Under the pieces are notes generated by a model. That model saw nothing but the letters and a program-made list of their open reading frames with translations, was not told where the DNA came from and made no database searches. A program made the translations under genes and the position numbers. Of a stretch of 32,000 nucleotides of DNA, positions 3,285-27,285 are shown piece after piece (position 1 is the stretch's first letter; each line of letters starts with the position of its first letter). This DNA is from Patescibacteria group bacterium (GTDB lineage: Bacteria; Patescibacteriota; UBA1384; XYA2-FULL-43-10): contig JBAYVT010000001.1 of NCBI GenBank assembly GCA_041674405.1, positions 150,001 to 182,000 of the forward strand, written 5' to 3'.

Positions 3285-3770
3285 GTGGAAATGAATCAAG
3301 AAATCTATTTGAAAATCGGAGTTGTGGTTCTAAACGAAAATGACGAAATTCTTTTGATCAAGGAGAAAGTTGATGAAGAATCAGAACCGGCGCTCAACAT
3401 CATAAAAGGGACTTTTGATAAACCTCACGAAAGTATTATCGATTGCGCCAAGCGAGAATGCTTGGAGGAAGCGGGGCTTGAGGTAGAGTTTCTAGGAGTC
3501 TTGAATATATTGACCATGCAGTCTCGCGGAAAACTCAAAATCCAGTTTAATTTTGTTGCCAGAGCAAACACCGACAAGGTTTCCCTGCCAAAAGAAAGAG
3601 GCCTCCACATTGAAGGAGAAAATATCATTGGAGAATCTTGGTTTACCAACGATCAGATTGCAGATCTAGAACCCAAAGATTTTGTTGCAGATTACACGCT
3701 ACGCATTATCCGAGAATGGATAGAAAATGGTAAAGTATATTCCCTAAATATTTTGGAAGACCAATTTTAA
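3285..3770 (+). CDS. Nudix-family hydrolase
   Basis: Contains GTFDKPHESIIDCAKRECLEEAGLE, a near-canonical Nudix box (REx2EExG). Start could be GTG 3285 or ATG 3291. Confidence 0.8.
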   Translation: MEMNQEIYLKIGVVVLNENDEILLIKEKVDEESEPALNIIKGTFDKPHESIIDCAKRECLEEAGLEVEFLGVLNILTMQSRGKLKIQFNFVARANTDKVSLPKERGLHIEGENIIGESWFTNDQIADLEPKDFVADYTLRIIREWIENGKVYSLNILEDQF

Positions 3771-4426: not shown

Positions 4427-5071
4427 CTATACCTCGATGTACTCTTTAAATTTTTCGAGGATGTCTGACAATTTATCTTTTTCAAGATCAATTCGATAAC
4501 CAGGGCGACTGTTTAATTCATCCAGAAGGTCATAGAACTCTTCCTCACCCAAAACTTTCAGCCCCAAGGCATCAATTTCTTTGTCTAGTATTTTATTAGC
4601 GTCAGCAACATTCTCTTCATCAGTCAAGATTTCGGCCTCAAAATAATGTCCCCAATCAGGGACTTCAACAACTGCAAATTCGACTCCACGATACTCGTAG
4701 TCATATTTTGTGTTCGCCATAAGGACATATTTTGTAAATCCGAGGATTTTTAGAAATTCGATAAAATCAGTGAATTTTTTGGTCTCAAATTCAAAATTAT
4801 ATTCTTTTCTGGCATCTTTGCCACTCCATTTGCCATATTTGCATGCTAACTCTGCTTGGCCATTTGTGATACGGATTTTAAGATCGACCGGATCATCTTT
4901 CACTTCGCGAATACTTTTTATGCTTGCGCTTTTTATCATCGAAAAGCGTTTTTTCTTGCCTAAAAAAGTGCCTTCCTTGGAGAGAAAAGAATTTAAATGC
5001 TCAAACTTTTCCGCGGTCAGTAGCCCGCGATGCTCGACTTCCATCTGCGACATATTATTCCTTATGGCCAA
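4427..5071 (-). CDS. CYTH-like (CyaB / triphosphate tunnel metalloenzyme-like) protein
   Basis: N-terminal MEVEHRG resembles the ExExK signature. DLKIRITNGQAELACKYG and VEFAVVEVPDWGHYFEAEI resemble CYTH core strands. The assignment is from motif memory only. Confidence 0.5.
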   Translation of the reverse strand: MAIRNNMSQMEVEHRGLLTAEKFEHLNSFLSKEGTFLGKKKRFSMIKSASIKSIREVKDDPVDLKIRITNGQAELACKYGKWSGKDARKEYNFEFETKKFTDFIEFLKILGFTKYVLMANTKYDYEYRGVEFAVVEVPDWGHYFEAEILTDEENVADANKILDKEIDALGLKVLGEEEFYDLLDELNSRPGYRIDLEKDKLSDILEKFKEYIEV

Positions 5072-5099: not shown

Positions 5100-6101
5100 A
5101 TGGAAAACAAACTAATTACCAGTCTAAATAAATTTTACAGTTTAGATATTACTCGGATTGTTGCCAAAGCTAAGGGCGGATTTTTGAGTGATAATATGAT
5201 TGTGGCAAACAAAGACCAAAAATTCTTTCTACGCAAATACCGTGACAAATATTCCAGTGATGATATTGCAAGTATACACAAAAGTAAGCAATTTTTCTTC
5301 GAACATGGCATTCCCATAATCATGCCGATTAAAACCGTAAATGGAGACACATTCGTTGAAATTACTGGTAAATTTTATGGATTATTTCCATTTATCGAAG
5401 AAAAAGATATTAACCGAAACAAGCTAAACGACGACGTTTTAATATCAATCGCTCAGATGCAAGCGAAAATGCATCTTTTGAGTAAAGATGGAACGCCAAA
5501 AGTTACTGTAGAATCGAAAAATGTTTGGGATAAAAAAAAATCTTTACAAATGGCAAAGGAATTTGGAAAAATCATTTCACAGAAAAAATTATTAAATGGA
5601 TTTGATCGCTTAGCAAGGAAATTTATTAGGCTAAAGAAGAAAATAATTGAAGAAAATAAATTAAAGTTTGAAGATTTGAACATCAGGTCAGATCACCTGG
5701 TTCATGGTGATTTCCATGCCGGTAATCTGTTTTATGACGATAACGATACGGTAAAATATGTATTCGATCTCGAAAAAACGATTTTCGCGCCACGGGCATT
5801 TGAGCTTGTTAGGTCAATCATATTTATATGTTTCAGTAAGGGCTTTGAAAAGGGCATGGAAAAAGCCGGTTTGTATTTGAAAGCTTATCACAAAATATAT
5901 CCGATCTCGGATTCAGAATTTCGGGCAGGATTTCTCATGAGATATCTTGATATGGCTCATTCTTTCTGGATCGAAGAGCATCATTATCTAAAGAAGTACT
6001 ACAAAACAGATGTTTTATACCGAGACGATTTTATAAAACTAGAATATTTTTCCCGTGATATCAAGGGCGTGATTCGGAGAATATTAAAAAACGCGAAATA
6101 G
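5100..6101 (+). CDS. Phosphotransferase of the APH / choline-kinase / homoserine-kinase-II family
   Basis: LVHGDFHAGNLFYDDNDTVKYVFDLEKT contains the HxDxxxxN catalytic loop and a downstream D-x-E metal-binding motif. Confidence 0.75.
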   Translation: MENKLITSLNKFYSLDITRIVAKAKGGFLSDNMIVANKDQKFFLRKYRDKYSSDDIASIHKSKQFFFEHGIPIIMPIKTVNGDTFVEITGKFYGLFPFIEEKDINRNKLNDDVLISIAQMQAKMHLLSKDGTPKVTVESKNVWDKKKSLQMAKEFGKIISQKKLLNGFDRLARKFIRLKKKIIEENKLKFEDLNIRSDHLVHGDFHAGNLFYDDNDTVKYVFDLEKTIFAPRAFELVRSIIFICFSKGFEKGMEKAGLYLKAYHKIYPISDSEFRAGFLMRYLDMAHSFWIEEHHYLKKYYKTDVLYRDDFIKLEYFSRDIKGVIRRILKNAK

Positions 6102-6109: not shown

Positions 6110-9100
6110 CTAAATCACGATATTTACAATTTTTCCAGGTACGACGATTACTTTTTTAATCTCTTTGCCAGTAATAAATGCGCTGACTTTTTCACTATTT
6201 TTAGCAGCTTCCTCGAGGGCAGTTTTTTCAATATCTTTATCTACTTCGATGACATCGCGAAGTTTGCCATTGACCTGAATGGCAATTTTGATCTTATCGT
6301 CGCCTTTCAAGCTTTCATCAAATTTCGGCCAAGCTGAATTTGAAACCAAACCCTCGTTGCCGAGCTTTTCCCATAATTCTTCGGCCAAATGAGGAGCAGC
6401 CGGTGCTAGAAGCTGGCAGAATACACCAAATGATTTTTTACTAATTTCTTTCTCGGCCGACATAAGATTGTTGAAAGTCATAAGTTTGGCAACATAAGTA
6501 TTCAAGTTGAATCGCTCAAGATCGTTCTCAACAGCAAAGACTAATTTATTTACAGCAACTGCAAGATTATCACTATCAACTTTACCAGAGACTTTGTCCG
6601 AGTTTTCCCAAACTTTATTAAGAAATCTTGAAACGCCAGATAAGCCGTCCATGTTCCAGGCGGATTCTTTATCATACGGCCCGATGAACATAATGTAGGT
6701 GCGAAGCGCATCGGCACCATAGCGCTTCACAACATCATCCGGATTGACCACATTCCCCCGCGATTTGCTCATTTTTTGGTTGTCCGCGCCAAGTATGATC
6801 CCGTGAGCGATTCGTTTGTTATATGGCTCAAGCGTTGGCACTTTGCCAAGATCATATAGAAATTTGTGCCAAAAACGCGAATACAAAAGGTGCAAAGTTG
6901 TATGTTCGTTGCCGCCATTGTAAAGATCAACCGGCATCCAATATTTCAATTCTTTGACTGATGCTGAGAAAATGTCTTCGCTTGATTCATAATTCTTGAT
7001 TCTTGATTCTTGATTCATTGCGTAAGCGATGAAGTACCACGATGATCCCGCCCAGTTTGGCATCGTATCGGTCTCGCGCTTGGCGGGGCCGCCGCACTTC
7101 GGGCAGGTTGTATTTACCCAGTCGGTAATTGCGGCAAGCGGGGACTCACCGGTATCGGTCGGCTCATACTTTTCAACCTCCGGTAAAGTAAGTGGTAAAT
7201 CTTTCTCATCCATCGGCACAGTCCCGCACTTCTCGCAGTGGATGATAGGGATCGGCTCGCCCCAGTAGTGCTGGCGGGAAAATATCCAGTCACGAAGCTT
7301 GAAATTGACTGCGAAATCCCCGGCACCCATTTCCTTGAGCTTCTCGGTTATTTTCTTTTTACCTTCTTCTGATGTTAACCCATCAAACTCTTTGGAATTG
7401 GCAAGAACGCCATATTCCTCAAATGAATGTGCTGGATTATGAAAGCGGTCACGGACAATTTCATGCTCTATCGGCAGGACATATCCTTTGATATTCTCAA
7501 TTTCATCCCAATCCGCCCAGAACGGTTCGCTTTCCTCTGCCTCTTCTTTGGATAACGGCTCCTGCTCCTCATCAAGCAACTCGAAAGCCAAAGGATAATA
7601 TGTAGCTTTTCTATTCACATTTTTGTGAGTTGCATGGAAATGGACTTCCATCGGGCCGCCTAAGTTTCGAACGAATTTGACGTTCTTGTAACCGGTTTCT
7701 TCTAAAATCTCGCGCTTGGCGGTATCAACGATTGATTCACCTGGCTCAATGCCGCCGATAACCAACCCGATCCAAGGAAACTTCTTCCACTTAAGGGCTA
7801 GAACTTTGTTATTTTTGGGATTTATTACCACGGCATAAACCTGCTTTCGCTCGACTGTCTCTACGCCATCGATTGGCGGATCATTTTTATCAATTAGTTT
7901 AGGAATGATAACTTCCTTGATTGGAATATTGTATTTTTCGGCAAATTCAAAATCCCTCTGGTCGTGCGCAGGCACCGCCATCACGGCACCGGTTCCATAG
8001 GTTGCGAGAACATAATCAGCAATCCACACAGAAACTTCCTCGCCGTTTATCGGATTTATAGCTTTAATTCCTTTTAATTCCACTCCAGTCTTGTCTTTGG
8101 CAAGCTCAGTCCTGTCCATATCTGACTTTTTCTTCGCATTTTCAATATAGTTTTCCACATCTTTGACATTTGATATTTGATCTTTGATTTTGTCAACGAG
8201 TTCGTGTTCCGGCGCTAATACTATATATGTCACGCCGAAAAGCGTATCCGCGCGAGTAGTGTAGACCTTGATAATATTATCATTTAAGGATTCCAGAAAC
8301 TTGGCTCTTTCAAGATCATTTTTTCCGGCTCTGCGTTCTTTTTGGGCGGTAATCTTATAACAATTTGCCAGCCATTTTGCATCGGGAACTAAAAATTCAT
8401 GCCCGTCCAGTTCTTTTATAGTATCTCCCAGATCATGATCAAGTGTCCCAATCTCAATGTTGAAATCATCAGTACGAAAGACGCAAACCTGAAATTTTCC
8501 GTTGTCCTTATCTTCAATTTTACTGTAACCAAGTTCAGAAAAGATTTTTTTGCTTTCATCAAAATCTTTGGCCAAAACTCCCAAATCAACATCTGCAGGA
8601 TTTTCAAAAATATTTCCGCAATATCCAGCAACTGCAAAAGTACCATTAACCCAGAGTTTGATATTGCGCTTTTTAAATTCTGAATTGATCCTATCAATCG
8701 CTTCAAGCATTTTATTTGTTTTGTCAGAAATATTGGCATTCCCAAGATCAACTTTTTCTGAAGTTTGCTCCGCTTCGGTTGAAATGACAATTTTAAAATC
8801 AATTTCCGTTCCCTCGGATCGGCCAATCCAGTTTATCTGCTGGGTTTTGATATTCTCAAGATAATCAACGGTATCGAGATCCTTGATCAATCTATCTGCA
8901 TAGGCTGTGATACGGAGCATCCATTGCTTCTGTTTGCGTTTTTCTGTCTGCGCGCCGCAGCGTTCACAATTTCCGCCGATCACCTCTTCGTTGGCGAGGA
9001 TGATTTTGCATGATGGGCACCAGTTAACTGGCATCTCGGCCTGAAATGCCAAGCGTGGAGTTTCTTTGTCGTCATCGGCAACTTCGACAAGCTTGCCGTT

Positions 9101-9553
9101 GACAATCGCGTGCTTATAGAACTGCATGAATATCCACTGCGTCCATTTATAATAATTGGGATCAGTAGTATTGACCTCGCGACCCCAATCGAAGGAATAG
9201 CCAAGCGATTTCATCTGCTTTTTGAAGGTCGCAATACTTAGTGTGGTAACGTCTCTTGGTTTTGTCTTGGTTTTAATTGCGTAATTCTCTGTCGGCAGAC
9301 CAAATGCGTCCCAACCCATTGGAAAAAGAACATTGTAGCCTTGCATCCTTTTCATACGCGTAAACGCATCCGAGGCGGTGTAACCCATGCAGTGTCCAAC
9401 GTGCAATCCTGATCCGGAAGGATAAGGGAACTCCATGAGGGAGTAGAACTTCGGCTTATCGGAAAAATCAATGGACTGGCCGTATTTCGCCTCTTCCCAG
9501 GCCTTCTGCCATTTAGATTCAATTTTTTCAAAATCGTATTTTGCCATAATCAA
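6110..9553 (-). CDS. leuS: Leucyl-tRNA synthetase, 1147 aa, enlarged by two inserted domains
   Basis: Motifs present: PYPSGSGLHVGHCMGY (HIGH), WIGRSEG, TTRADTLFGVTYIVLAPEH (editing domain), AHDQRDFEFAEKY, RDWIFSRQHYWGEPIP and KMSKSRGN. Confidence 0.97.
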   Translation of the reverse strand: MIMAKYDFEKIESKWQKAWEEAKYGQSIDFSDKPKFYSLMEFPYPSGSGLHVGHCMGYTASDAFTRMKRMQGYNVLFPMGWDAFGLPTENYAIKTKTKPRDVTTLSIATFKKQMKSLGYSFDWGREVNTTDPNYYKWTQWIFMQFYKHAIVNGKLVEVADDDKETPRLAFQAEMPVNWCPSCKIILANEEVIGGNCERCGAQTEKRKQKQWMLRITAYADRLIKDLDTVDYLENIKTQQINWIGRSEGTEIDFKIVISTEAEQTSEKVDLGNANISDKTNKMLEAIDRINSEFKKRNIKLWVNGTFAVAGYCGNIFENPADVDLGVLAKDFDESKKIFSELGYSKIEDKDNGKFQVCVFRTDDFNIEIGTLDHDLGDTIKELDGHEFLVPDAKWLANCYKITAQKERRAGKNDLERAKFLESLNDNIIKVYTTRADTLFGVTYIVLAPEHELVDKIKDQISNVKDVENYIENAKKKSDMDRTELAKDKTGVELKGIKAINPINGEEVSVWIADYVLATYGTGAVMAVPAHDQRDFEFAEKYNIPIKEVIIPKLIDKNDPPIDGVETVERKQVYAVVINPKNNKVLALKWKKFPWIGLVIGGIEPGESIVDTAKREILEETGYKNVKFVRNLGGPMEVHFHATHKNVNRKATYYPLAFELLDEEQEPLSKEEAEESEPFWADWDEIENIKGYVLPIEHEIVRDRFHNPAHSFEEYGVLANSKEFDGLTSEEGKKKITEKLKEMGAGDFAVNFKLRDWIFSRQHYWGEPIPIIHCEKCGTVPMDEKDLPLTLPEVEKYEPTDTGESPLAAITDWVNTTCPKCGGPAKRETDTMPNWAGSSWYFIAYAMNQESRIKNYESSEDIFSASVKELKYWMPVDLYNGGNEHTTLHLLYSRFWHKFLYDLGKVPTLEPYNKRIAHGIILGADNQKMSKSRGNVVNPDDVVKRYGADALRTYIMFIGPYDKESAWNMDGLSGVSRFLNKVWENSDKVSGKVDSDNLAVAVNKLVFAVENDLERFNLNTYVAKLMTFNNLMSAEKEISKKSFGVFCQLLAPAAPHLAEELWEKLGNEGLVSNSAWPKFDESLKGDDKIKIAIQVNGKLRDVIEVDKDIEKTALEEAAKNSEKVSAFITGKEIKKVIVVPGKIVNIVI
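7415..7905 (-). other. Nudix hydrolase domain inserted in LeuRS
   Basis: Between ...EKYNIPIKEV and GVLANSKEFDGL the protein contains GGIEPGESIVDTAKREILEETGY (7688-7756), a canonical Nudix box GX5EX7REUXEEXGU. Confidence 0.8.
8270..8790 (-). other. ~170-aa insertion in LeuRS with a nucleotidyltransferase-fold-like signature
   Basis: It lies between EGTEIDFK and VYTTRADTLFG, which are only a few residues apart in the LeuRS sequences I recall. LWVNGTFAVAGYCGNIFENPADVDLGV resembles the G-x(n)-DxD pattern of ANT(2'')/Lnu-type nucleotidyltransferases. Confidence 0.45.
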
Positions 9554-9596: not shown

Positions 9597-10337
9597 CTAT
9601 GGTAGGCGACAAAAAAGTACTTCTTGTTGGTAATCTTTCGTTTCTGCAATTATTTTTCCCTCCGTTGAAAATAAGTAACCACCTCCCGGAAAATCATCAT
9701 CCATATTTCGTCCAGACTGAGTCGCGACAGCAATATTGATTTTATTTTCTCTGGCATAATTTCCAATTTTTGTAATGCAATTATTTTTCCACCACAAATA
9801 GCCCTTCTCCCAGTTACGATTTTCTCGATCGCCATACAAATCAGGAGATGCGCACTCAAACACTACTTTGCAACCCTTGGTTGCATATTCTTTATATAAT
9901 TCTGGCAAATCAATATCAGCACAAATTGTAATGCCGAACCTTACTCCACCCAAATCAAAAATTGGTGATTCAACTCCAGAAGAAAAAATCTTCTCCTCTC
10001 CGCTTTGGACATTATGCTTACGGTAAACACCTACGATTTTCCCATTTTGAGCAAAAATTTGGGTAATGTGATATCCGGAATTGTCTTTTTCTCCTATTCC
10101 AAACAAAATTGCAATATCCTTGCTTGCTCCAACAACTTTCTTTACAGGTTTGCTCTCTAATTCCAGACATGTATCGATATAATTATTTTCTGTAAAATAA
10201 CCCGTTAGACTCATTTCCGGGAACACGGCTACATCCGCCTTTGCTTTTGCTGCAAAAGAAATATAATCGGACATTCTCTCCGAATTAATTTTGATTTCAC
10301 CCTTTGCTGAGGGCATTTGAACCAAAGCTATTTTCAT
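9597..10337 (-). CDS. Carbon-nitrogen hydrolase (nitrilase superfamily)
   Basis: MKIALVQM..., FPEMSLTGY (Glu), YRKHN (Lys) and ITICADI (Cys) give the E-K-C triad context. An ATGA start/stop overlap joins it to the upstream Nudix gene. Confidence 0.85.
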   Translation of the reverse strand: MKIALVQMPSAKGEIKINSERMSDYISFAAKAKADVAVFPEMSLTGYFTENNYIDTCLELESKPVKKVVGASKDIAILFGIGEKDNSGYHITQIFAQNGKIVGVYRKHNVQSGEEKIFSSGVESPIFDLGGVRFGITICADIDLPELYKEYATKGCKVVFECASPDLYGDRENRNWEKGYLWWKNNCITKIGNYARENKINIAVATQSGRNMDDDFPGGGYLFSTEGKIIAETKDYQQEVLFCRLP

Positions 10338-10768
10338 TGTTTATTCGTTAAATATTTAACAAGTTTTTCTTTTGCAAATGTTGGATAAAGATTTGGGGTT
10401 TTTGAAATGTCGTCGAAATCCATCCAGTGAATATAGTATTGATTATTTGAATCAGTCAACATTTTTCGCGGTTCGTTGAGTTTCGGTTTTCCGCTGAATT
10501 TATCAATCAAGAAAAAGTAGCTGGTTCTACCAATATCATTTCCATTCTTTTCAACATATCCCTCAAACAAAAGTTTTCCAGTTTCAGCATCAATACCGAG
10601 TTCTTCTTTCAATTCGCGCTTCGCTGTTTGCTCGAGACTTTCTCCTTCCTCGACTCCACCGCCGGGAAAGCTAAAATATTCTTCTCCATCCTTGATCCTA
10701 CGAAACAGGAGAATTTTATTATCTTTCAATATAATCCCGCACGCTCTTTGGGTTATCCTAAAATTCAT
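10334..10768 (-). CDS. Nudix hydrolase
   Basis: GGGVEEGESLEQTAKRELKEELGI is a perfect Nudix box. Confidence 0.9.
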   Translation of the reverse strand: MNFRITQRACGIILKDNKILLFRRIKDGEEYFSFPGGGVEEGESLEQTAKRELKEELGIDAETGKLLFEGYVEKNGNDIGRTSYFFLIDKFSGKPKLNEPRKMLTDSNNQYYIHWMDFDDISKTPNLYPTFAKEKLVKYLTNKQ

Positions 10769-11643: not shown

Positions 11644-11828
11644 GTTTAAAAACCAGTAATATATTTGTAGCATACACTTCAATATTAACTATAATTTGAG
11701 CAAAAACACAATTGATGATTCTCTAAATCATGAAGGAATCCTGATGGCTCAGCATATTAGTTGCATAACTATCCTTAAATAAAAACAGTTTGCAAGAGTA
11801 TCAACTCATCAAATTGTGGAAGGAAATA

Positions 11829-12848
11829 ATGGTAGAAGGAAAATTTTATTTTTCACATGAACATGAGCAGCATACAGGCTTTACAGACAGTGAAGGAAAT
11901 GATTGGGATGTACCTGGGCGGCTGGAGAAAATTGTCTCATGGATTGCCAGAAGGTATGGAGAAAATTATTTAAATGTTCTGCAAGAAATAAACGAGTCTG
12001 ATTTTATTGATATAATTCGGCGGGTTCACGAAGCCGAAATGATAGAGGAACTGAAACAAACTAGCCTAAGAGCAAAGGATGGCGAAGCCCTAATTACGTC
12101 ATTTGACTCAGATAAGGAAACGAGCGTTACTCCTGTTTCGAGACATACATATAAAAGCGCACTTGCTGCGGTAAAATGCTCTCTTTCAGCAGCCGAAATG
12201 TTGAAAAGCTCTCGGTCAAACCTTGCTGTCGCCTTATCACGCCCTCCAGGACATCACGCTGGGAAAAATTATTATCATGGTTTTTGTTACATGAACAATA
12301 TTGCTGTCGCAGCCGAATCTTTAAAAGAGGATGGAGAAAGAGTAGCAATTCTGGATATTGACGCTCATCATGGCGACGGAACTCAACAAATCTTCCAAGA
12401 TGACTCAAGCGTATTTTACTCTTCGCTTCACGCTGATCCAAATCTGGTGCTTCCGCATACCGGAAAGTCTGACGAGATCGGTAATGACGGAAGTATTTTG
12501 AATCTCCCTTATTCAATTGGTATCTCGACAGAAGAATATTTGACCTTGCTGAATTTTTCGCTTAAACATATCCAAATGTTTGACCCGCAATATCTGTTAA
12601 TATCGGCTGGATTTGATACCCACAAACGCGAATTTGAATCGATGGGCTTGCCACCAGTTACGCAGCTTGATTCACCCGACTACGAGGAGATAGGGCGGAT
12701 GATTGGATCATTGTCTTTGCCAACTGGGGTGGTTCTTGAAGGGGGTTACAACCAAACTGCGTTGAGCGAAGCTTTGATGAATTTTACTATTGGCCTGGAG
12801 AACAGCTTAAAAACCAAGCCATGCTTTGACTTTTTTGCTCTAAAGTGA
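11829..12848 (+). CDS. Histone-deacetylase-family amidohydrolase (AcuC / acetylpolyamine amidohydrolase-like)
   Basis: Motifs RPPGHHAG, DIDAHHGDGTQ, SAGFDTH and EGGYN. ATG 11829 is preceded by GGAAGGAAAT; the track start TTG 11790 is an alternative. The gene ends 13 nt before NRPS-1. Confidence 0.85.
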   Translation: MVEGKFYFSHEHEQHTGFTDSEGNDWDVPGRLEKIVSWIARRYGENYLNVLQEINESDFIDIIRRVHEAEMIEELKQTSLRAKDGEALITSFDSDKETSVTPVSRHTYKSALAAVKCSLSAAEMLKSSRSNLAVALSRPPGHHAGKNYYHGFCYMNNIAVAAESLKEDGERVAILDIDAHHGDGTQQIFQDDSSVFYSSLHADPNLVLPHTGKSDEIGNDGSILNLPYSIGISTEEYLTLLNFSLKHIQMFDPQYLLISAGFDTHKREFESMGLPPVTQLDSPDYEEIGRMIGSLSLPTGVVLEGGYNQTALSEALMNFTIGLENSLKTKPCFDFFALK

Positions 12849-12861: not shown

Positions 12862-15800
12862 ATGTATAATGTTAAGCTACTACATGATTTTTTTGTGTTT
12901 CAGTCTCAAAAAAATCCCAATCAAATTGCCGTCGTTGATTTCAAAAAATCCTATACCTATAAAGAAATCGAAACAAGCGCTAATCGCCTTGCTTTTGAAT
13001 TGACCAGTCACTCCCCTGCGCTTCAACAGGATAAAATCGGATTTTTTACAGATCGTTCGGTTGATTCGATAATTATTATGCTTGGCATATTAAAATCAGG
13101 CCATGCTTTTGTTCCTATCGATCCCAACCTACCAGCAAAGCGCATCGAATATATTTGCGATAAAGCCACGATTAAAACTATCGTTTCAGGAAACACAGAA
13201 TATTATTCAAGCAAAAAACAAACAATTATTCACCTTCGGTCGATCATAACCGTCAAAGATTTCAAGTATAAAGAAATAAAAATTCCAGACGATAGAATTG
13301 CATATTGTCTATTTACATCAGGATCAACGGGGAGACCTAAGGGGGCGCTGATCAAACACTCCGGTATTGTACAATCTATTAAAAACTTTAAAAAGGCATA
13401 TCATTTTGATAAAAACAGCAAGGTACTTCAATTTGCTAGCCTATCGTATGATGCGTCCCTATCAGAGATTTTCCCAACTTTTGCTGCCGGTGGAACTATT
13501 TATATTCCGCCCAGAGAAGTGATTTTAGATATTGATAAGTTATCATCATACATTATCGAGTCAGGTATAACAGCAGCAATATTTCCGCCTACTGTTATCG
13601 GGCACCTTAACAAAGATTCTCTTTCTTCACTCTCAACTTTAGTGTCCGCAGGCGAAGAATGCCCTGCTGATTTAGCAAATAGAATGTATGAATTGGTTCC
13701 ACATTTTATTAACGCATACGGACCCACAGAAGCTTCAGTAGGAGTTACCACCTTTGAACTAGACCGGAAAATAAAAAATGCAGTTCCTATTGGCAAAGCT
13801 TTACCTGGATACAAGATTTATATATTAAACAAGGTTGGTCAAAGAGTCTCTATTGGCCAAATTGGCGAACTCTGTATAGGCGGCGTTGGAGTTTTTGCCG
13901 GTTATATCGGGGATAGCGCAAAAACTCACGAAGTTTTAATCCCTAATCCTTTTGGCGTCGGTTATCTGTATAAGACCGGCGATCTTGTAAAACAAGATGC
14001 GAATGGGCAAATTTATTATGTTGGAAGGAATGACTTTCAAATAAAATTACATAGCATTAGGATGAGCCCGGAAGAAATCGAAAGAGAAATTAAGAAGCTG
14101 CCAAAAATCAATGAATGCGTGGTTGTTGATGGATGTCTTGAAAGTAACAAGGAACACAAATTGGTCTGTTATTTTACTGCCTCAGAAGATTTAAATTTAA
14201 CAGTAACACGAGATATCCTTCGTTCCAAGTTGCAACCACATATGATTCCCCAGGTTTTCATCCATATTCCTTCAATGCCTCTGACCCCAAGCGGAAAAAT
14301 CGACCGACATGCACTTCAAATAAAACCCGTCAGAATAAAAACTGAGACAGATACTCTTAACGACAGCGTAATTTCTGACTCTCCAATAGCACGCATATGG
14401 AAAGATATTTTGGGCACGAACTCCGTGTCTCTTGAAGACAACTTTTTTGAATTAGGCGGATCATCTATCTCCGCCATGCGGATCGTCTCGAAGATTAATA
14501 AAAATACAGACTTTCATGCAAACATAAATTTAATTTTTGAATATCCTGTTTTTAATGATTTCGTTCGCGCCCTAGAAAAAGAAGCTTCAGAGACAGAAAA
14601 AGAACATGATAAGACATTTGCAGACCAAAAGTTAACAGACCCAGAAAAGTTATTTTGGGCCGCCAACTATACTTCCAAGAAACCGGAAGCATATACACTA
14701 ACTGAAGTGTTTGAACTTAATGGACAAATAAATACAAACAGACTTCAAAGAAGTTTCGAGTTTCTAATTAGTCAATTTCCTAAATTACGCACCAATTTCA
14801 GATTTAGGTTCGATAAAATTGAAAAAGTGATTAAAAATGAAAAATCATATCCGTTCTGTCTCCGTGATTATTCAAATCTGGATATCTCCAGAGCAAGAAA
14901 AAAGGCCAGGCAAACCCAGGAACATATTGCCAACATTCCCATGGATCTGGAAAAAGACTGGCTCTTTGTAGCCTATTATTTGAAATTGTCTGAAGTAGAA
15001 GGACTGCTGATCTTCCATGCCCATCACATTGTTATGGACGCCAGAGCAATGGAAATTATATCTAAAAAATTTTGGGATTATTATGAACACCATCAAGATT
15101 ACAAGTTGGTGGAAAATATTAATTCTATGCATTCACAACCTACAGATGATGAAAAAACCTTTTGGAAAGAATATTTGTCCCGAGCAGATGATAATTTGAC
15201 TTCATTGCCATATGACAATCCCAAGAATGAAACAACAGAAAACAATGGAAAGACTATTATACATCCATTACCTTTGCGATTGGCCCGAGAAGGATCCAAA
15301 ACTGCTACGGCTCTAGGCATTACCCCTTTCTCTCTTTTTCGAAATATTTTTTCCTTACTCCTTCATCGTCTTTCAAATCAGGTTAATTTAACTGTTGGCA
15401 CGGCTGTCAGCCTGCGAGATGACAACAGTGAAAATGATATTGGTGTTTTCTTAAATACATTACCTATCCGGTCAACTTTGCGGAGCGGAGAACCAATAGA
15501 AAAATATCTAGTAAGACAAAATAAGGAATTTATACATTGCTTTAAACACAGGAACCTTTCACTACCTCATATTCTCAAACTAATTCAGAATGACTGCAAA
15601 AAAGACTCTCAGCCCCTATTTAATGTAATGTTTGATTATATTGCTGAAGAAGGCACTTCTAAGGTAATCGGTTTGCAAGTAAAACGTCAAAGGGCCTTTC
15701 CGGCAACTGCACTTTTTGATCTTACCCTCACGGTCAAAGAATTAAATTGCGGTTTTGAATTGCTGTGGGAATATAACACCAATCTATTTAACGAGAAAAC

Positions 15801-18800
15801 TCTTCGAAAATTTATGAATTGGTATGAAAATATCTTTCATAACTCAATCAATGATCTAAAACAAAATGCTTCTAAGATCGATTTTTTAACACAAAAAGAA
15901 AAACAGTTACTAGAAGATTTCAATTCTACTGATATAACGATTCCCAATTCTTGTTTTATCCAAGAATTTGAAAAGAATATCAGTAAATTTTCTGATAAGA
16001 TTGCGGCTACCAGTGGTGACAAAACCATAGATTACAAAACTCTCAATCAAAAAGCAAATATTTTAGCAAGGAAGCTCCTGGAACATAAAATCGGCATTAA
16101 TGATAAAATTGGCGTTTTAATGCCCAGAGGCATTGATCTGATCATCTCAATTCTTGCGATATGGAAAGTACGAGCCGTTTATGTTCCTCTTGAACCGGAT
16201 TTTCCAGATGATAGGATCCGGCAAATGTCAATGCAAGCAAATCTTTCATGTATAATTTCCAAAAATGAATATAGCAGAGAGAGGGTGATCACTGAGGTGC
16301 CTTTTTTGCATTTTGATAGCGTGCAAAAAAAGAAGGAAGCAGATATGGAAAATTTAAATATCCGCGGATCGATGAATGATCTTGTATATGTTATTTTTAC
16401 CTCTGGATCGACAGGCAAACCCAAGGGGGTGATGATAGAACAGTTGGGGATGGTTAATCATTGCAATGAAATGATTAAATTTTTTCACCTTAAAGAAAAT
16501 ACCATTATGGCACAAACAGCCTCTCATTGTTTTGATATCTCTATATGGCAATTAGTTGCCCCTTTGCTAATTGGAGGCAAAATTATAATCTACTCGAAAG
16601 ATCATCAGCTGAATCTAAAGGCACTCTTTGAGTCAATTATTGAAGATAAAATCACGATCGCTGAACTTGTTCCTTCGTATCTATTTGCTCTACTTGAACA
16701 TATCAATCATCATGTCAATAACAATAGGCTTAATGATCTTTGCCACATGCTGACAACCGGCGAGGCTGCTTCTAATAAACTTGTTGAGAGTTGGTACGCT
16801 ATTTATCCTGAAATCCCCCTTACCAATGCCTATGGGCCAGCGGAAGCATCTGATGACACCAATCTGTACACTTTGACAAAACAAGAAGCCATTCCCAATA
16901 CGCCTATTCCCGTTGGTAAACCAATAGGAAATGTCAAGATTTACATTCTTGACTCATTTTTAAATAGGTGCCCTATCGGCATAAAAGGTGAAATTTATAT
17001 CTCTGGAATTGCAGTCGGAAAAGGGTATATAAATGATCATGAAAAGACTAAGGCAGCATTTCTCACCAACCCTTTCTCTGGCAACAAAGAACGGATGTAT
17101 AAAACAGGAGACATTGGAAGCTGGAATAGCGATGGAACTATCAACTTTTATGGTCGCACTGATTTTCAAGTAAAAATCAGAGGATATAGAATAGAGCTTG
17201 AAGAGATCGAGAACCAAATTGAAGATATCCCTTATGTCAGTCAGGCTGTAATTATTGTAAAAAACTTTGGTAACTCGAAGCAGTTATATGCATTCATTAC
17301 TGGTCAGGGGCAGATCGAAGAGAATCCCATACGAAGTTCGCTTCAAGCCAAACTTCCGGCCTACATGATTCCCCAAAGAATAATTCAGTTGAATGAAATA
17401 CCGCTAAATCATAATGGCAAGGCAGACCGAAAGTTATTATCTAAAATTGATATTGCTAATCACCAAGAGAAGCTTGATAAAGTTTTGTCTGAGAAACAAC
17501 AAATTTTGCTTGAGACCTGGAAATCAATATTTAAAGATAACGAAATTACCATAAATGACAATTTTTTTGACCTCGGAGGAGACTCAATTTCCAGCATACA
17601 GATAATCTCAAGATTGTTATCTCAGGGCTACGAGCTAGATATTGAAAATTTTTTTGCACACCCGACAATATGCCAACTCGCCTCTTTTGTGATTAAAAAA
17701 CAATACATTGGATCGATCCCCATTTCGGAAAAACCATTCTTTCTCACTCCAATTCAAAAATCTTTTCTAGAAAAGTCGCTCGGTAATCCAAATTGGTATA
17801 ACCAGTGTGTAGTAATTGAAGGCAAGAAATGGAATACAGAGAAATTAAAAGAATCGCTTTTACACACACTTAAAGCGCATCCGGCATTTTCATTACGTTT
17901 TAATAATTTCGAACAGCAATATATAAAGTCTGTTGATTTTTCCAAATACATCTTTGAGTACTCGGCTGATGAACTTAACGATGAGCAGATTCTTTCAAAC
18001 ATGAATAAGATGATTAATATTAAAGAGGGTCCGATTATCGTGGCTACAATTTCAGATAAAGGAAACTCGGAATTTAAATTATTTATAGTGGCTCATCATT
18101 TGATAATAGACGCTTTTTCATGGAGCATATTCATAGACGATCTAGAAAAAAACTATCATAACGCCCTACTAGAAAATAATCATAACCAGAAAAGTCTCGG
18201 CTCAAATTTGCATGAATGGGCTACATACCTAGAAAAAAGATCTTTTAAGAAGATTGTTTCAAGCAGATTGCCATATTGGGAAAAAATTCTAAAAGACAAT
18301 AAGATACCGATTTCATCTTCAATTCCGCAAAAAAACAACGGAAATCATCGAATAATTTCCTTAGGAGCAAATGCAAATTTTTCAAAAAAAATTGCTGACT
18401 TCATAGCAAACAATAGCTCACTAAAGCTAGAACATTTAGTTATATCAATTTTAACACGAGCTCTCTGTAAATGGCTCGCATCTGACGAAATTGCCGTTAT
18501 GCTTGAACGGCATGGGCGCAGCCATGTTCCTAATAATTTCAATATTAGTCGAACAATTGGCTGGTTTACAGTCATTCATCCTTTTCTGGTTAAATTAAAT
18601 ATGGACGGAAATATAGCCCAAGCACATGCAATCGCTAAAGATCTTGAGAATTTGAAAGATGATGGAATTAGTTATGGCCTTCTGAAATATAGGGGCAGCA
18701 TGAATAATCCGCTCAAAAAAATTCCAGAACCTGATATTGCGATAAACTTTCTTGGGGAGATGTGTAGGGCGAATTCAAACGGTTATTTTTCCAATTACAA

Positions 18801-19095
18801 GCTTATTCCAGACCAAACAGTTGATCCGCGACGCCAGTTAGAATATAAATTGGAAATAAATACTTATCTGGTAGAAGGCCGATTGGTTATTGAGTGTACC
18901 TATGACCAAGAATGCTTTCCGATATCTTTGATGAATCAATTGGTGGAGGAAATTGAAATAAACATCAAAAATCTGAGTGCCGAAATTGACAGTTCTAAAA
19001 GAGATAAAAAAATTGAGATGCCAACTTCCAGTTTTAGCAATGAGAGGTTGTCAGAAATTCAAAATAGGTTAGCCGGGACGATTAGCAATGGGTAA
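12862..19095 (+). CDS. Non-ribosomal peptide synthetase 1, domain order A-T-C-A-T-E
   Basis: A1 (~12862-14320): FTSGSTGRPKG, NAYGPTE, YKTGD, PSGKIDR. T1: FFELGGSSIS (Ser codon 14464-14466). C1 (~14620-15900): HHIVMD at 15022-15039. A2 (~15950-17440): FTSGSTGKPKG, NAYGPAE, YKTGD, NGKADRK. T2: FFDLGGDSIS (Ser codon 17584-17586). E (~17730-19000): LTPIQKSF, AHHLIIDAFSW (18094-18111), ERHGR, RTIGWFT, INFLGE. Confidence 0.97.
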   Translation: MYNVKLLHDFFVFQSQKNPNQIAVVDFKKSYTYKEIETSANRLAFELTSHSPALQQDKIGFFTDRSVDSIIIMLGILKSGHAFVPIDPNLPAKRIEYICDKATIKTIVSGNTEYYSSKKQTIIHLRSIITVKDFKYKEIKIPDDRIAYCLFTSGSTGRPKGALIKHSGIVQSIKNFKKAYHFDKNSKVLQFASLSYDASLSEIFPTFAAGGTIYIPPREVILDIDKLSSYIIESGITAAIFPPTVIGHLNKDSLSSLSTLVSAGEECPADLANRMYELVPHFINAYGPTEASVGVTTFELDRKIKNAVPIGKALPGYKIYILNKVGQRVSIGQIGELCIGGVGVFAGYIGDSAKTHEVLIPNPFGVGYLYKTGDLVKQDANGQIYYVGRNDFQIKLHSIRMSPEEIEREIKKLPKINECVVVDGCLESNKEHKLVCYFTASEDLNLTVTRDILRSKLQPHMIPQVFIHIPSMPLTPSGKIDRHALQIKPVRIKTETDTLNDSVISDSPIARIWKDILGTNSVSLEDNFFELGGSSISAMRIVSKINKNTDFHANINLIFEYPVFNDFVRALEKEASETEKEHDKTFADQKLTDPEKLFWAANYTSKKPEAYTLTEVFELNGQINTNRLQRSFEFLISQFPKLRTNFRFRFDKIEKVIKNEKSYPFCLRDYSNLDISRARKKARQTQEHIANIPMDLEKDWLFVAYYLKLSEVEGLLIFHAHHIVMDARAMEIISKKFWDYYEHHQDYKLVENINSMHSQPTDDEKTFWKEYLSRADDNLTSLPYDNPKNETTENNGKTIIHPLPLRLAREGSKTATALGITPFSLFRNIFSLLLHRLSNQVNLTVGTAVSLRDDNSENDIGVFLNTLPIRSTLRSGEPIEKYLVRQNKEFIHCFKHRNLSLPHILKLIQNDCKKDSQPLFNVMFDYIAEEGTSKVIGLQVKRQRAFPATALFDLTLTVKELNCGFELLWEYNTNLFNEKTLRKFMNWYENIFHNSINDLKQNASKIDFLTQKEKQLLEDFNSTDITIPNSCFIQEFEKNISKFSDKIAATSGDKTIDYKTLNQKANILARKLLEHKIGINDKIGVLMPRGIDLIISILAIWKVRAVYVPLEPDFPDDRIRQMSMQANLSCIISKNEYSRERVITEVPFLHFDSVQKKKEADMENLNIRGSMNDLVYVIFTSGSTGKPKGVMIEQLGMVNHCNEMIKFFHLKENTIMAQTASHCFDISIWQLVAPLLIGGKIIIYSKDHQLNLKALFESIIEDKITIAELVPSYLFALLEHINHHVNNNRLNDLCHMLTTGEAASNKLVESWYAIYPEIPLTNAYGPAEASDDTNLYTLTKQEAIPNTPIPVGKPIGNVKIYILDSFLNRCPIGIKGEIYISGIAVGKGYINDHEKTKAAFLTNPFSGNKERMYKTGDIGSWNSDGTINFYGRTDFQVKIRGYRIELEEIENQIEDIPYVSQAVIIVKNFGNSKQLYAFITGQGQIEENPIRSSLQAKLPAYMIPQRIIQLNEIPLNHNGKADRKLLSKIDIANHQEKLDKVLSEKQQILLETWKSIFKDNEITINDNFFDLGGDSISSIQIISRLLSQGYELDIENFFAHPTICQLASFVIKKQYIGSIPISEKPFFLTPIQKSFLEKSLGNPNWYNQCVVIEGKKWNTEKLKESLLHTLKAHPAFSLRFNNFEQQYIKSVDFSKYIFEYSADELNDEQILSNMNKMINIKEGPIIVATISDKGNSEFKLFIVAHHLIIDAFSWSIFIDDLEKNYHNALLENNHNQKSLGSNLHEWATYLEKRSFKKIVSSRLPYWEKILKDNKIPISSSIPQKNNGNHRIISLGANANFSKKIADFIANNSSLKLEHLVISILTRALCKWLASDEIAVMLERHGRSHVPNNFNISRTIGWFTVIHPFLVKLNMDGNIAQAHAIAKDLENLKDDGISYGLLKYRGSMNNPLKKIPEPDIAINFLGEMCRANSNGYFSNYKLIPDQTVDPRRQLEYKLEINTYLVEGRLVIECTYDQECFPISLMNQLVEEIEINIKNLSAEIDSSKRDKKIEMPTSSFSNERLSEIQNRLAGTISNG

Positions 19096-22042: not shown

Positions 22043-22043
22043 C

Positions 22044-22709
22044 ATGATTAATATCGAAGTTTTAATAATAAGCTGGTCAGAGTCATACGCCCAACAAATT
22101 GACTCTGTTCAACTTCATTGTACAGATGAAGAAAAAGAGAGAGGAAAAAAATTTAAAAAAGAAACTGACAGGGCAGCTTACTTGCTTTGGTGCTCGTATA
22201 TTAGAGAAGCCTGCTCTAAAATGATTGGGATATCACCTGCTTTGATTTCAATTTCTAGGGATAATTATGGCCGACCATTTTTAACCGACTACTCGAATAA
22301 AATTGATTTTAATATATCACATAGCGGATCAAAACTCGCAATTGGTATAAGTACCGACGGTAAAATAGGTGTTGACTTGGAAAAAATTATTCCGATAGAC
22401 ATTAGGGAAATTCAGAAATTTTTCACCCGCGAGGAAATGTCATATATTGATCATTCCAGAACCAATAAAACTCAGCGACTTTTTCAAGTCTGGACATCAA
22501 TAGAGGCCTATTCAAAATTACTGGGTATCGGCCTTGATAAACAGATTAAAAAACGTATTTTTACACTATTAAATAAAGATCAGGCATTAATACAACATGC
22601 CGGATCGCCTATCTTCGTTAACTCTTTCAAGTGCAATAAATATATACTCTCAGTTGCTAGCAAAAATAGAAATTTTAAGGTAAATCTAAACAAAATTGAC
22701 TTGGGCTGA
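22044..22709 (+). CDS. Sfp-type 4'-phosphopantetheinyl transferase
   Basis: ISHSGSKLAIGIS, GKIGVDLEKI and FTREEMSYI...VWTSIEAYSKLLG match the PPTase motifs. It starts 1 nt after the NRPS-2 stop. Confidence 0.85.
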   Translation: MINIEVLIISWSESYAQQIDSVQLHCTDEEKERGKKFKKETDRAAYLLWCSYIREACSKMIGISPALISISRDNYGRPFLTDYSNKIDFNISHSGSKLAIGISTDGKIGVDLEKIIPIDIREIQKFFTREEMSYIDHSRTNKTQRLFQVWTSIEAYSKLLGIGLDKQIKKRIFTLLNKDQALIQHAGSPIFVNSFKCNKYILSVASKNRNFKVNLNKIDLG

Positions 22710-22713
22710 TTGT

Positions 22714-23952: not shown

Positions 23953-24505
23953 TTTTATTTTTCCAATCTTTTTTAGATAAAACCGCTTCCCAACCGTCAT
24001 ATAATTTTCCATCAATAAAAGCGGCCGCAGGTTTAATGCCATATTCCTTAAAACCAAGTTTTTCAAACACTCGGCGGCTAGCAATATTAGGTTCAAAAAT
24101 AATGGCAAATAAATATTCAAGATTAAGTTCAGAAAAGGCGTATTTAATCACACATTGTTCTACAATGGCTGCAATTCCATCGCCCCAATAATTTTTGTTC
24201 CCGATCATGATCCCAGTAAATGCGGTGGCTTCAGGAAATTGAATATCATGGAGCCAAACAGCACCCACGCAAACATCCTCTACGGTTATCTGCCACATGC
24301 ACCATTGATTTGAAGACTGAAATTCTTTTAATCGTATATTTTCTTTGTTTTCATCTGTTTTTTCTGCATGAGGATCTAGCAATCGCATAACCTCAGCATC
24401 ATTTAGCCAAGACACCAATAGAGCTGTGTTTTTTGTTTCAGGTTGAACTATAAAAATTTCCCGATTCTTTTTGTCTTTTCCGCAAAAGATTTTTTGTCCA
24501 AACAT
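23924..24505 (-). CDS. GNAT N-acetyltransferase, RimJ/RimL-like
   Basis: GNKNYWGDGIAAIVEQCVIKYAFSELNLEYLFAIIFEPNIASRRVFEKLGFKEYG. Its 3' end overlaps the aminotransferase start by 29 nt. Confidence 0.8.
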   Translation of the reverse strand: MFGQKIFCGKDKKNREIFIVQPETKNTALLVSWLNDAEVMRLLDPHAEKTDENKENIRLKEFQSSNQWCMWQITVEDVCVGAVWLHDIQFPEATAFTGIMIGNKNYWGDGIAAIVEQCVIKYAFSELNLEYLFAIIFEPNIASRRVFEKLGFKEYGIKPAAAFIDGKLYDGWEAVLSKKDWKNKNEQSAANNR

Positions 24506-26775: not shown

Positions 26776-27285
26776 TTAAAATGGTTTAATTATCCCCATC
26801 TTGATGATTTTCTTGAACCAAAATGTATAATTTTGCGGGTTTCTTAAGATATCGTCTTTTAGAGCGCTTAATGAAATCCACTTCGTGGTCTCAATTTCAG
26901 CCGGATCCGGATGAATCGGCCCATTATACTTGCCAATAAATACAACATCGTATTCGTTTTCAATAAGCCCATCATCAAAATCAGCGCGGTAAATGAACGG
27001 CTTTATTTTCTTGACTGGGCAATCGAATCCCACCTCTTCATGTAATCTACGATGAACAGCTGAAATGTAACGCTCCCCTGGTCGTGGATGACTACAGACG
27101 GTATTCGACCACAGACCACCAGAGTGATATTTGCTTGAGTGCCTTTTTTGCAAGAGAAGCTCACCCTTATTGTTAAACACAAAAACCGAAAATGCGCGGT
27201 GGAGAAGGCCTTTTTTGTGAGCCTCAAGTTTCTCTTCCGTTCCTAGTTTTCGGTTTGATTTATTAACTAGAACAACTTGTTCCAT
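26776..27285 (-). CDS. idi: Isopentenyl-diphosphate delta-isomerase, type 1
   Basis: LLHRAFSVFVFNNKGELLLQKRHSSKYHSGGLWSNTVCSHPRPGE and ENEYDVVF match the type-1 IDI (Nudix-fold) active-site regions. Confidence 0.9.
   Translation of the reverse strand: MEQVVLVNKSNRKLGTEEKLEAHKKGLLHRAFSVFVFNNKGELLLQKRHSSKYHSGGLWSNTVCSHPRPGERYISAVHRRLHEEVGFDCPVKKIKPFIYRADFDDGLIENEYDVVFIGKYNGPIHPDPAEIETTKWISLSALKDDILRNPQNYTFWFKKIIKMGIIKPF

Follow-up and report, generated by a model that had tools for sequence, protein, structure and literature searches.

A Nudix hydrolase module nested in the editing domain of a patescibacterial leucyl-tRNA synthetase and its apparently undescribed subfamily in and beside other aminoacyl-tRNA synthetases

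Aminoacyl-tRNA synthetases (aaRSs) with an accessory enzyme domain and Nudix hydrolases are both known kinds of protein. Among the former, IleRS with a GNAT acetyltransferase, as named in the title of the NCBIfam model NF040702 (ileS_w_GNAT), gives an earlier example of an extra enzyme domain in a class Ia synthetase. Among the latter, the RNA pyrophosphohydrolase of Escherichia coli, RppH (NudH/YgdP), which also hydrolyses Np4A and Ap5A, is a free-standing enzyme stimulated by DapF, and the diadenosine polyphosphate (ApnA) hydrolases, such as Aquifex aq_158 (3i7u), Thermus thermophilus Ndx1 (1vc8) and human NUDT2, are small single-domain Nudix proteins. Dinucleoside polyphosphates made by aaRSs are removed by Nudix hydrolases of diadenosine tetraphosphate (Ap4A), as in the LysRS-Ap4A-NUDT2 axis (PMC4734340, PMC9283932), and in these Ap4A systems the synthetase and the hydrolase are separate proteins whose genes are unlinked. 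Our study concerns a leucyl-tRNA synthetase (LeuRS) gene in a stretch of 32,000 nucleotides (hereafter the window) from a Patescibacteria group bacterium (assembly GCA_041674405.1, contig JBAYVT010000001.1, positions 150,001 to 182,000). Positions 7430-7906 of its minus strand encode, within the synthetase, a whole Nudix domain with an intact metal-binding box. Unlike the known Ap4A hydrolases, this module and its relatives share one polypeptide with an aaRS or lie in genes adjacent to one, and it is this family-wide linkage to synthetases that is unexpected.

The host is a bacterial-type LeuRS of the same standard kind as those solved from T. thermophilus (1h3n) and E. coli (4aq7), including the insertion of the CP1 editing domain. 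Its open reading frame (ORF) occupies positions 6110-9553 of the minus strand and encodes 1147 residues, with a TTG start codon and a stop codon at 6110-6112; the NCBI record (MFA7243841.1, from a Patescibacteria-group metagenome-assembled genome) starts at an ATG two codons downstream, at 9547, and its 1145 residues are identical to the window protein except for the two extra N-terminal residues of the latter. The bacterial LeuRS equivalog model TIGR00396 (leuS_bact) matched with 935.8 bits, well over its cut-off of 548.4, and this match is split into three stretches because of two inserts. The core of the protein also matched NF040702, whose architecture differs in host, guest fold and chemistry. 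The alignment to T. thermophilus (Tt) LeuRS 1h3n (E=3.7e-196) is interrupted twice, by residues 256-427 in place of Tt residues 237-242 and by residues 550-708 in place of Tt residues 363-374. The first of these inserts, which the initial annotation had overlooked, accounts for the length of 1147 residues. In agreement with that annotation, all the LeuRS motifs that we searched for are present: the class I signatures HVGH (the HIGH motif; residues 51-54, positions 9392-9403) and KMSKS (residues 927-931, positions 6761-6775), and the editing motifs TTRADT (residues 432-437, positions 8243-8260) and AHDQRD (residues 529-534, positions 7952-7969), all on the minus strand.

Read from its N terminus, and with all coordinates on the minus strand, the protein begins with the N-terminal half of the catalytic (Rossmann) core, which contains the first zinc-finger-like CxxC pairs and aligns to Tt residues 1-236 (residues 1-255, positions 8789-9553). 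This is followed by insert 1, of 172 residues, at the entry to the editing domain (residues 256-427, positions 8273-8788), and by the main body of the CP1 editing domain (residues 428-549, positions 7907-8272), where the best stretch of the Pfam editing-domain model PF13603 covers residues 424-554 and profile positions 19-145 of 185. The Nudix hydrolase module lies in a surface loop of this domain (residues 550-708, positions 7430-7906) and was delimited by Pfam, the 1h3n alignment, AlphaFold, Foldseek and a profile search of PDB sequences. The C-terminal remainder of the editing domain (GVLANSKEFDGL..., about residues 709-740, positions 7334-7429) ends where the editing-domain model of an insert-less relative (P0072) ends, since residue 422 of that relative corresponds to about residue 739 of the window protein. 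The second half of the catalytic core (RDWIFSRQHYWGEPIP, with CxxC zinc motifs) and the anticodon-binding and C-terminal domains complete the protein (positions 6113-7333; Pfam, TIGR00396 and the 1h3n alignment). The peptides on the two sides of the Nudix module are AHDQRDFEFAEKYNIPIKEV (residues 529-548) and GVLANSKEFDGLTSEEGKK (residues 715-733). Unlike 1h3n and 4aq7, the window LeuRS has no leucine-specific domain, as judged from the 1h3n alignment and profiles, and has the extra insert at Tt 237-242. Its editing residues T432, T433, R434, D436, T437, H530, D531, R533 and D534 are invariant in 120 relatives, with or without a Nudix module, so the Nudix domain adds a function to the synthetase and replaces none.

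In the initial annotation, the Nudix domain followed the editing domain and preceded the point where the catalytic core resumes. Its insertion within LeuRS stands, but its location has to be revised, because the module is nested inside CP1. In the insert-less relative P0072, model PF13603 spans residues 239-422 unbroken; the Nudix insertion point corresponds to P0072 residues 381/392 and that of insert 1 to residues 253/260. Both points fall within 239-422, and thus both inserts are nested inside the CP1 editing domain. This domain, in turn, interrupts the Rossmann fold as an insertion. Compared with the solved LeuRSs (1h3n and 4aq7), which have a loop of 12-20 residues where the window LeuRS has its Nudix module, the module therefore represents a second level of nesting at the Tt loop 363-374. 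The 159 residues that stand for the 12-residue Tt loop give a net gain of about 147 residues.

The module is a complete Nudix domain. The Pfam NUDIX model (PF00293) matched residues 570-687 with 53.3 bits (gathering score 21.1; E=3.6e-14), a match well outside what chance would produce. The 23-residue Nudix box, defined as GX5EX7REUXEEXGU (PMC9283932), is matched throughout by residues 600-622 (GGIEPGESIVDTAKREILEETGY, positions 7688-7756, minus strand), with G600, E606, R614, E615, I616, E618, E619, G621 and Y622 at the defining positions; the initial annotation had given these same coordinates, and they are exact. An AlphaFold2 model of the full-length protein gave a predicted local distance difference test (pLDDT) of 94-98 over the Nudix region, with an overall pLDDT of 85.1 and a predicted TM-score (pTM) of 0.75, and a model of the module alone gave a pLDDT of 95.4 and a pTM of 0.88. 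When this model was compared with solved structures by Foldseek, 536 PDB chains were matched at E<=1e-3, all of them Nudix proteins with the alpha/beta/alpha sandwich fold, with a probability of 1.00 and a best target-normalised TM-score of 0.77, and a profile search of PDB sequences returned the same neighbours. Profile and structure searches thus agree on a Nudix fold.

The insertion is not a peculiarity of this genome. A module of 147-167 residues is present at the same point in 76 of the 120 best LeuRS relatives (counted as clusters), and 74 of these 76 keep the box. In a scan of GTDB that used one genome per species and gave at least 248 relatives, the module lay within the LeuRS ORF in 78 of the 80 best loci, which were those examined. 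A profile built from 38 modules and searched against 1.84 billion representative proteins gave 145 matches at E<=1e-30 and 538 at E<=1e-10, and 110 of the 148 new representatives listed (50%-identity clusters) are LeuRSs. A metagenome scan meant to add free-standing members yielded almost only LeuRS-embedded copies (57 of 60 long module-bearing ORFs). Nearly all Nudix-bearing LeuRSs come from Patescibacteria, also known as the Candidate Phyla Radiation (CPR); by the labels of the deposited bins, the GTDB records include Berkelbacteria, Paceibacteria, Zambryski-, Taylor-, Buchanan-, Falkow-, Vogel-, Nomura-, Morani-, Kaiser- and Adlerbacteria and many 'Saccharibacteria'. Bacterial-type Nudix-bearing LeuRSs were also present in bins labelled Woesearchaeota (L023, L024, L045, L049, L076), Gammaproteobacteria (L017, L029, L053, L072) and Bdellovibrionales (L058). 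These archaeal and proteobacterial labels reflect either mis-binned or mislabelled CPR contigs or lateral transfer.

It is important to consider whether a chimeric contig or a frameshifted gene fusion could have produced this architecture, given that the source is a metagenome-assembled genome. We found no positive evidence of such an artefact. The reading frame is unbroken across both Nudix junctions, the guanine-cytosine content of the module, overall and at third codon positions (GC/GC3 0.442/0.459), is the same as that of the LeuRS host segments, and the architecture recurs in hundreds of independent assemblies. On recurrence and composition we rejected an assembly or annotation artefact, whose probability we regard as negligible; the continuous frame, the 78 of 80 GTDB loci and well over 100 protein clusters bear out the earlier reading of the gene as a fusion by insertion.

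Special attention was given to the residues on which Nudix catalysis depends. Across 324 instances of the module, the metal-binding glutamates are kept almost without exception (E615 in 322, E618 in 319 and E619 in all 324), and 274 of the instances retain the full E-R-E-E-E set. Beyond the box, K644 (321 instances), R569 (313) and W679 (316) are near-invariant, as is R648. The window protein has R569, E606, R614, E615, E618, E619, K644, R648 and W679. At the level of sequence, the Nudix box is demonstrably under strong purifying selection.

The structures closest to the module are those of the MutT-like proteins 2azw (Enterococcus faecalis), 3smd (Bacillus thuringiensis) and 2pqv (Streptococcus pneumoniae), which are free-standing proteins of uncharacterised function from Firmicutes and share 18-22% identity with it; Foldseek matched 2azw with E=2e-9 and a target-normalised TM-score of 0.77, and the PDB profile search matched the three with E=1e-8 to 6e-8. 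The next structural neighbours are RppH, including its complex with Ap4A (7sp3), the Ap4A hydrolase 3i7u, the Ap6A hydrolase Ndx1 (1vc8), NUDT12/NudC, Dcp2-type decapping enzymes and diphosphoinositol polyphosphate phosphohydrolases. RppH shares the fold of the module, its Nudix box is complete, it ranks with the best neighbours in both Foldseek and the profile search, and it is the only family that NCBIfam names for the module and its free-standing relatives, with scores of 22-35 bits against cut-offs of 116-118; a free-standing relative at locus L043, for instance, reached 34.5 bits where the RppH model requires 118. Its identity to the module is 16-18%, it is a free-standing enzyme whereas the module is nested in or lies beside aaRSs, and the residues R569, W589/W594, K644, R648 and W679 of the module are specific to the subfamily and do not appear to be RppH signatures. 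The ApnA hydrolases gave target-normalised TM-scores of 0.76-0.77.

Short sequence markers downstream of the box did not place the module in a characterised group. A tyrosine 16-18 residues downstream of the box is said, after Dunn et al. in 1999, to mark ApnA hydrolases. In the module an aromatic residue is conserved 17 residues after the box, within this interval, but it is mostly Phe (253 of 324 modules) and not Tyr (62 of 324); the residues at +16, +17 and +18 of the window protein are H638, F639 and H640. ADP-ribose pyrophosphatases are marked by a proline 16 residues after the box, where the module has His638, and the NADH pyrophosphatase (NudC) motif SQPWPFPxS, found downstream of the box in that family, is absent from the window protein. 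We also rejected an assignment of substrate from the nearest solved structures, since these neighbours are mixed and none is close. The module apparently represents a distinct, undescribed Nudix subfamily.

The distribution of the module within LeuRS is that of a cassette. Seventy-one instances occupy the position seen in the window (site 2), 17 lie at the entry to the editing domain (site 1) and three within the C-terminal half, so that at least three kinds of LeuRS site hold it, and 12 representatives have two or three copies (for example L005, arranged as A-N-B-N-C, and L032, with three copies in 1385 residues). The identity of the host and that of the module are uncorrelated (r=0.03 over 2850 pairs), with median pairwise values of about 67% for the LeuRS host and about 35% for the module. 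For example, hosts that are 88% identical (P0036 and P0038) or 82% identical (P0076 and P0009) carry modules of 35% and 30% identity, respectively. A single ancient insertion followed by vertical descent was therefore rejected, since hosts 80-88% identical hold modules only 30-36% identical; either cassettes must have been replaced or the same loop must have received insertions repeatedly. A Fitch count gave 30 changes on the host tree, a figure not to be over-read because this tree is nearly star-like. No flanking direct or inverted repeats were found at 7430 or 7906, and an intein or other mobile insert was rejected: there are no such repeats and no endonuclease, the Nudix fold covers the whole insert, and its GC content equals that of the host.

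The subfamily extends beyond LeuRS. Five clusters of archaeal-type prolyl-tRNA synthetase (ProRS) carry the module (P0243 and P0269-P0272; 641-674 residues), between the anticodon-binding and C-terminal domains; P0243 matched the profile derived from LeuRS modules with E=1.6e-33, and the nearest insert-less relatives of these proteins are named Nanoarchaeota or Woesearchaeota (DPANN). Around 26 further representatives are the module alone, as free-standing proteins of about 160-200 residues. We examined 12 neighbourhoods of free-standing members, a small and non-random sample, and in eight of them an aaRS gene adjoins, with seven specificities represented. One member ends 2 bp before a leuS that carries its own Nudix module (P0144), another ends 3 bp before an insert-less bacterial leuS (P0177), and a third begins 35 bp after an archaeal-type leuS (P0163). 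Another lies 300 bp upstream of valS (L043), one follows argS by 13 bp and precedes an ileS by about 600 bp (P0216), one starts 15 bp after proS (P0229), and two precede synthetase-like genes, with gaps of 49 bp to a thrS-like gene (P0259) and of 40 bp to a metS-like C-terminal fragment (P0241). The remaining four (L059, P0181, P0207 and P0218) have no aaRS neighbour. With an assumed background of 6%, the binomial probability of eight in 12 is about 7e-8. The fact that the same subfamily is fused to synthetases in some genomes and adjacent to them in others is a classical signature of shared function. The hypothesis of a functional tie between this Nudix subfamily and aaRS chemistry is strengthened by the ProRS insertion and the adjacency in eight of 12 neighbourhoods.

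Some of these loci show arrangements of their own. At L081 a free-standing module lies beside an archaeal-type leuS, the converse of the bacterial-type LeuRSs in archaeal-labelled bins. At L090 (5094-8498), an ileS contains an inserted histidine-phosphatase (His_Phos_1) domain, and just upstream of it are a free-standing Nudix gene of the aaRS-linked type, argS, another Nudix gene, a dUTPase gene and a thymidylate kinase gene. At L096 (40-1218), a gap of 40 bp separates a free-standing Nudix gene from a downstream 208-residue ORF that corresponds to no more than the C-terminal part of a MetRS-like enzyme, with a KMSK motif and an anticodon-binding domain; the contig is short, and this ORF could be a split or disrupted synthetase gene. 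Finally, the small ORFs at L120 (3728-4555) and L143 (609-1211) appear to consist of a LeuRS editing-domain fragment (…INPITNE…), the Nudix module and an '…INS.EY…' segment, with no remaining LeuRS, and could be relics, pseudogenes or stand-alone editing-plus-Nudix proteins.

Building on the Nudix fold, the intact metal-binding box, its purifying selection, the recurrence of the module and its linkage to aaRSs, which the preceding analyses establish, we propose, with a probability of about 0.5 and judging from sequence, that the module is an active, aaRS-dedicated Nudix enzyme that partners aaRSs in CPR bacteria and in at least some DPANN-like archaea and cleaves nucleotide pyrophosphates generated by them, most likely dinucleoside polyphosphates (NpnN). 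In the window, a whole Nudix pyrophosphohydrolase, predicted to be catalytically competent, is inserted in frame into a CP1 loop of an otherwise normal LeuRS that is presumably proficient in editing; elsewhere, the subfamily appears usually built into LeuRS, occasionally into ProRS, and otherwise encoded directly beside an aaRS gene, by a gene of roughly 165 codons. The module would act in cis or next to the synthetase and would hydrolyse a nucleotide pyrophosphate produced by aaRS chemistry. The likeliest substrates would be Ap4A, Ap3A and other NpnN, formed from the enzyme-bound aminoacyl-adenylate and ATP or another nucleotide, and Np4-type RNA caps may be further ones. Through their hydrolysis, ATP and AMP would again become available to a cell that cannot make nucleotides de novo, and the build-up of alarmones or caps would be halted at its source. 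We rank this clean-up of ApnA and NpnN with recovery of ATP above other activities because NpnN were first found as products of aaRSs and because both Np4 compounds and the corresponding caps are cleaved by Nudix enzymes of the RppH type (PMC9283932; PMC4734340). Since LeuRS accepts the module at three or more sites, and since it also exists as a gene of its own beside the synthetase gene, it probably needs no exact geometric coupling to the editing site; the advantage is likelier to lie in co-localisation and 1:1 co-expression with the synthetase.

Several observations count against this proposal. The module falls among generic MutT, RppH, Ap4A and decapping Nudix proteins and in no characterised subfamily, its best PDB neighbours being the uncharacterised 2azw, 3smd and 2pqv, and the window protein reached 22.3 bits with the RppH models of NCBIfam (PRK00714), whose cut-off is 116. 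About 15% of the instances, or by another tally about 25, combine E606Q with A, M, T or Q in place of R614; these two changes covary, are often found in supernumerary copies and could mean altered or lost activity. ArgRS, one of the neighbouring synthetases, is not known to form an adenylate without tRNA or to make Ap4A. Many other modules in CPR LeuRSs also show that these synthetases tolerate passengers.

This tolerance is the starting point of a different explanation, in which a housekeeping Nudix enzyme for sanitising or salvage resides in permissive loops of an essential and well-expressed protein and is uncoupled from aminoacylation. The many other inserts in CPR LeuRSs, at the same and at other loops, would suit it, as would the one IleRS with a histidine-phosphatase insert, the four of 12 free-standing members without an aaRS neighbour, and the one free-standing member that adjoins fpg, which hints at a MutT-like sanitising role. 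We consider a mere passenger unlikely, since aaRS genes, of seven specificities in all, adjoin eight of the 12 free-standing members, ProRS as an unrelated class II synthetase also carries an insert of this subfamily, and one to three copies occur at three or more LeuRS sites, with divergent cassettes swapped in near-identical hosts; in addition, the three other Nudix genes of the window belong to other subfamilies (10-31 bits with the module profile, against at least 100 for members). A non-catalytic part for the module, as a sensor of Ap4A, guanosine tetraphosphate (ppGpp) or ADP-ribose that regulates LeuRS or as a structural brace of CP1, could draw on the instances with E606Q and a replaced R614, on the high pLDDT across both junctions, which suggests in the model a rigid packing on the editing domain, and on the bridging of an aaRS to a partner by ADP-ribose, as described in a recent report (PMC13478228). 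The retention of the three metal-binding glutamates in 319-324 of 324 instances and the complete box of the window protein make it very unlikely, and the free-standing gene versions argue against a purely structural role.

Other possibilities keep the enzyme active and change its substrate. One is an RppH- or NudC-like activity directed at tRNA, which would trim or decap the 5' end of the tRNA held by the synthetase (5'-triphosphate, Np4 or NAD caps). The nearest neighbours by structure and profile include RppH, NudC/NUDT12, Dcp2 and decapping effectors, the weak NCBIfam matches point to RNA pyrophosphohydrolase, all linked proteins, ArgRS included, bind tRNA, and a polyphosphate or the 5' end of an RNA would go well with the invariant basic residues R569, K644 and R648. 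RNase P is absent in the DPANN archaeon Nanoarchaeum equitans (PMC8172020), but circularised CPR genomes retain a diverged RNase P RNA (PMC8172020), so the main group of hosts would not be expected to contain leaderless 5'-triphosphate tRNAs, which weakens this role. Several LeuRS sites and a different place in ProRS are also hard to fit to a tRNA 5' end in one fixed place, the module shows no evident RNA-binding extension, and its RppH family scores are far under the cut-off; on balance, we hold a tRNA-directed enzyme to be improbable. The other is a new proofreading step, in which mis-activated aminoacyl-adenylates set free by error-prone synthetases would be hydrolysed before transfer, in cis or in trans. 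Most of the linked aaRSs (LeuRS, ValRS, IleRS, ThrRS, ProRS and MetRS) are classical editing or error-prone enzymes and the commonest module sites are inside the editing domain; the Nudix-bearing archaeal-type ProRSs, moreover, presumably lack the INS editing domain. The chemistry tells against this step, as the mixed anhydride of an aminoacyl-AMP involves a nucleoside monophosphate and not a nucleoside diphosphate linked to another moiety, and no Nudix enzyme is known to cleave it, a reaction carried out by HIT/Hint enzymes. With its editing site fully conserved, LeuRS shows no evident gap in proofreading, and the adjacency to ArgRS does not fit; we regard such proofreading as quite unlikely.

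The Nudix module is one of several inserts in these synthetases. Insert 1 of the window protein gave only sub-threshold matches to nucleotidyltransferase-like Pfam models, with a pLDDT of 30-66. Its GC/GC3 of 0.360/0.285 is clearly lower than in the host segments (GC3 0.44-0.53), it is shared by only two of the top 120 relatives (P0002 and P0120), and its free-standing homologues (161-162 residues, 56-61% identical) are encoded by genes that do not lie beside aaRS genes; it looks recently acquired. Other CPR LeuRSs carry an alpha/beta-hydrolase at about residue 256 or 777, a 167-residue module at about residue 859, to which insert 1 has no similarity and with which a relationship was therefore rejected, or further inserts of about 185-200 residues at site 1 or in the C-terminal half, in proteins with or without the Nudix module. 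The carriers of these inserts are clusters P0006, P0024, P0049 and P0111; P0014, P0030, P0048, P0101 and P0112; and loci L008, L017, L023, L027, L028, L047, L054, L065 and L079, together with L009, L014, L036, L046, L048, L052, L056, L072 and L080.

The window encodes three free-standing Nudix proteins, at 3285-3770 on the plus strand and at 10334-10768 and 26776-27285 on the minus strand, which scored 15, 31 and 10 bits, respectively, with the module profile. Subfamily members score at least 100, and a donor among these genes was rejected; their BLAST similarity to the module is restricted to the box region. The third adjoins genes for a polyprenyl synthase and a UbiA prenyltransferase, and on account of these neighbours may be of the isopentenyl diphosphate isomerase type. 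Around leuS are genes for a CYTH-domain protein (4427-5071, minus strand), an APH-type phosphotransferase (5100-6101, plus strand), a carbon-nitrogen hydrolase (9597-10337, minus strand) and a histone-deacetylase-family enzyme (11790-12848, plus strand), none of them with an evident link to the Nudix module. Positions 12862-24120 hold a non-ribosomal peptide synthetase cluster. Two of its products, of 2077 and 984 residues, have condensation and carrier (PP-binding) domains, and the one of 2077 residues has an AMP-binding domain as well; the cluster also encodes a 4'-phosphopantetheinyl transferase (22044-22709) and a class-III aminotransferase (22714-24120). In genomes this reduced, clusters for secondary metabolites are uncommon. 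An Rfam scan of the whole window gave no matches.

A search of 8 million full texts for Nudix domains with LeuRS or other aaRSs and for insertions in CPR aaRSs found no description of this architecture, in line with the initial annotation. The combination of Nudix and LeuRS is visible in precomputed Pfam annotations, and the architecture is thus present in databases but apparently undescribed. In the named homologue entries, the Nudix-bearing LeuRSs are mostly called 'class I tRNA ligase family protein' by NCBI, and most insert-less relatives are called 'leucine--tRNA ligase'; P0005, which bears the Nudix module and is named 'Leucine--tRNA ligase', is an exception. The inserts may push LeuRS out of the equivalog naming rule and so distort the annotation of CPR genomes.

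Few enzymes have been studied as well as aaRSs, and time and again their accessory domains have brought new biology to light, such as editing, signalling and Ap4A. Across much of a major bacterial radiation, the proofreading domain of an essential synthetase contains a pyrophosphatase that is apparently active, and the tracking of at least seven synthetases by this subfamily, through fusion or adjacency, is a Rosetta-stone signal of an undescribed shared pathway. More broadly, the subfamily might be a dedicated component of nucleotide economy or of the quality control of translation in the ultra-small, symbiotic CPR bacteria and DPANN archaea, performing a step new to aaRS systems, be it the destruction of mis-activated adenylates, the removal of adenylate-derived caps or polyphosphates from a bound tRNA, or an obligatory recycling of Ap4A to ATP where it is made; we consider this tentative and unlikely, and, if true, it would explain the repeated fusion at different sites, in several copies and to unrelated synthetases. 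If the substrate is Ap4A or another NpnN, this would be the first case of the producer and the destroyer of an alarmone in one polypeptide, and would offer a clean system to measure the in vivo Ap4A output of a synthetase. If the substrate is instead an adenylate or a tRNA end, the module would represent a new proofreading or maturation step.

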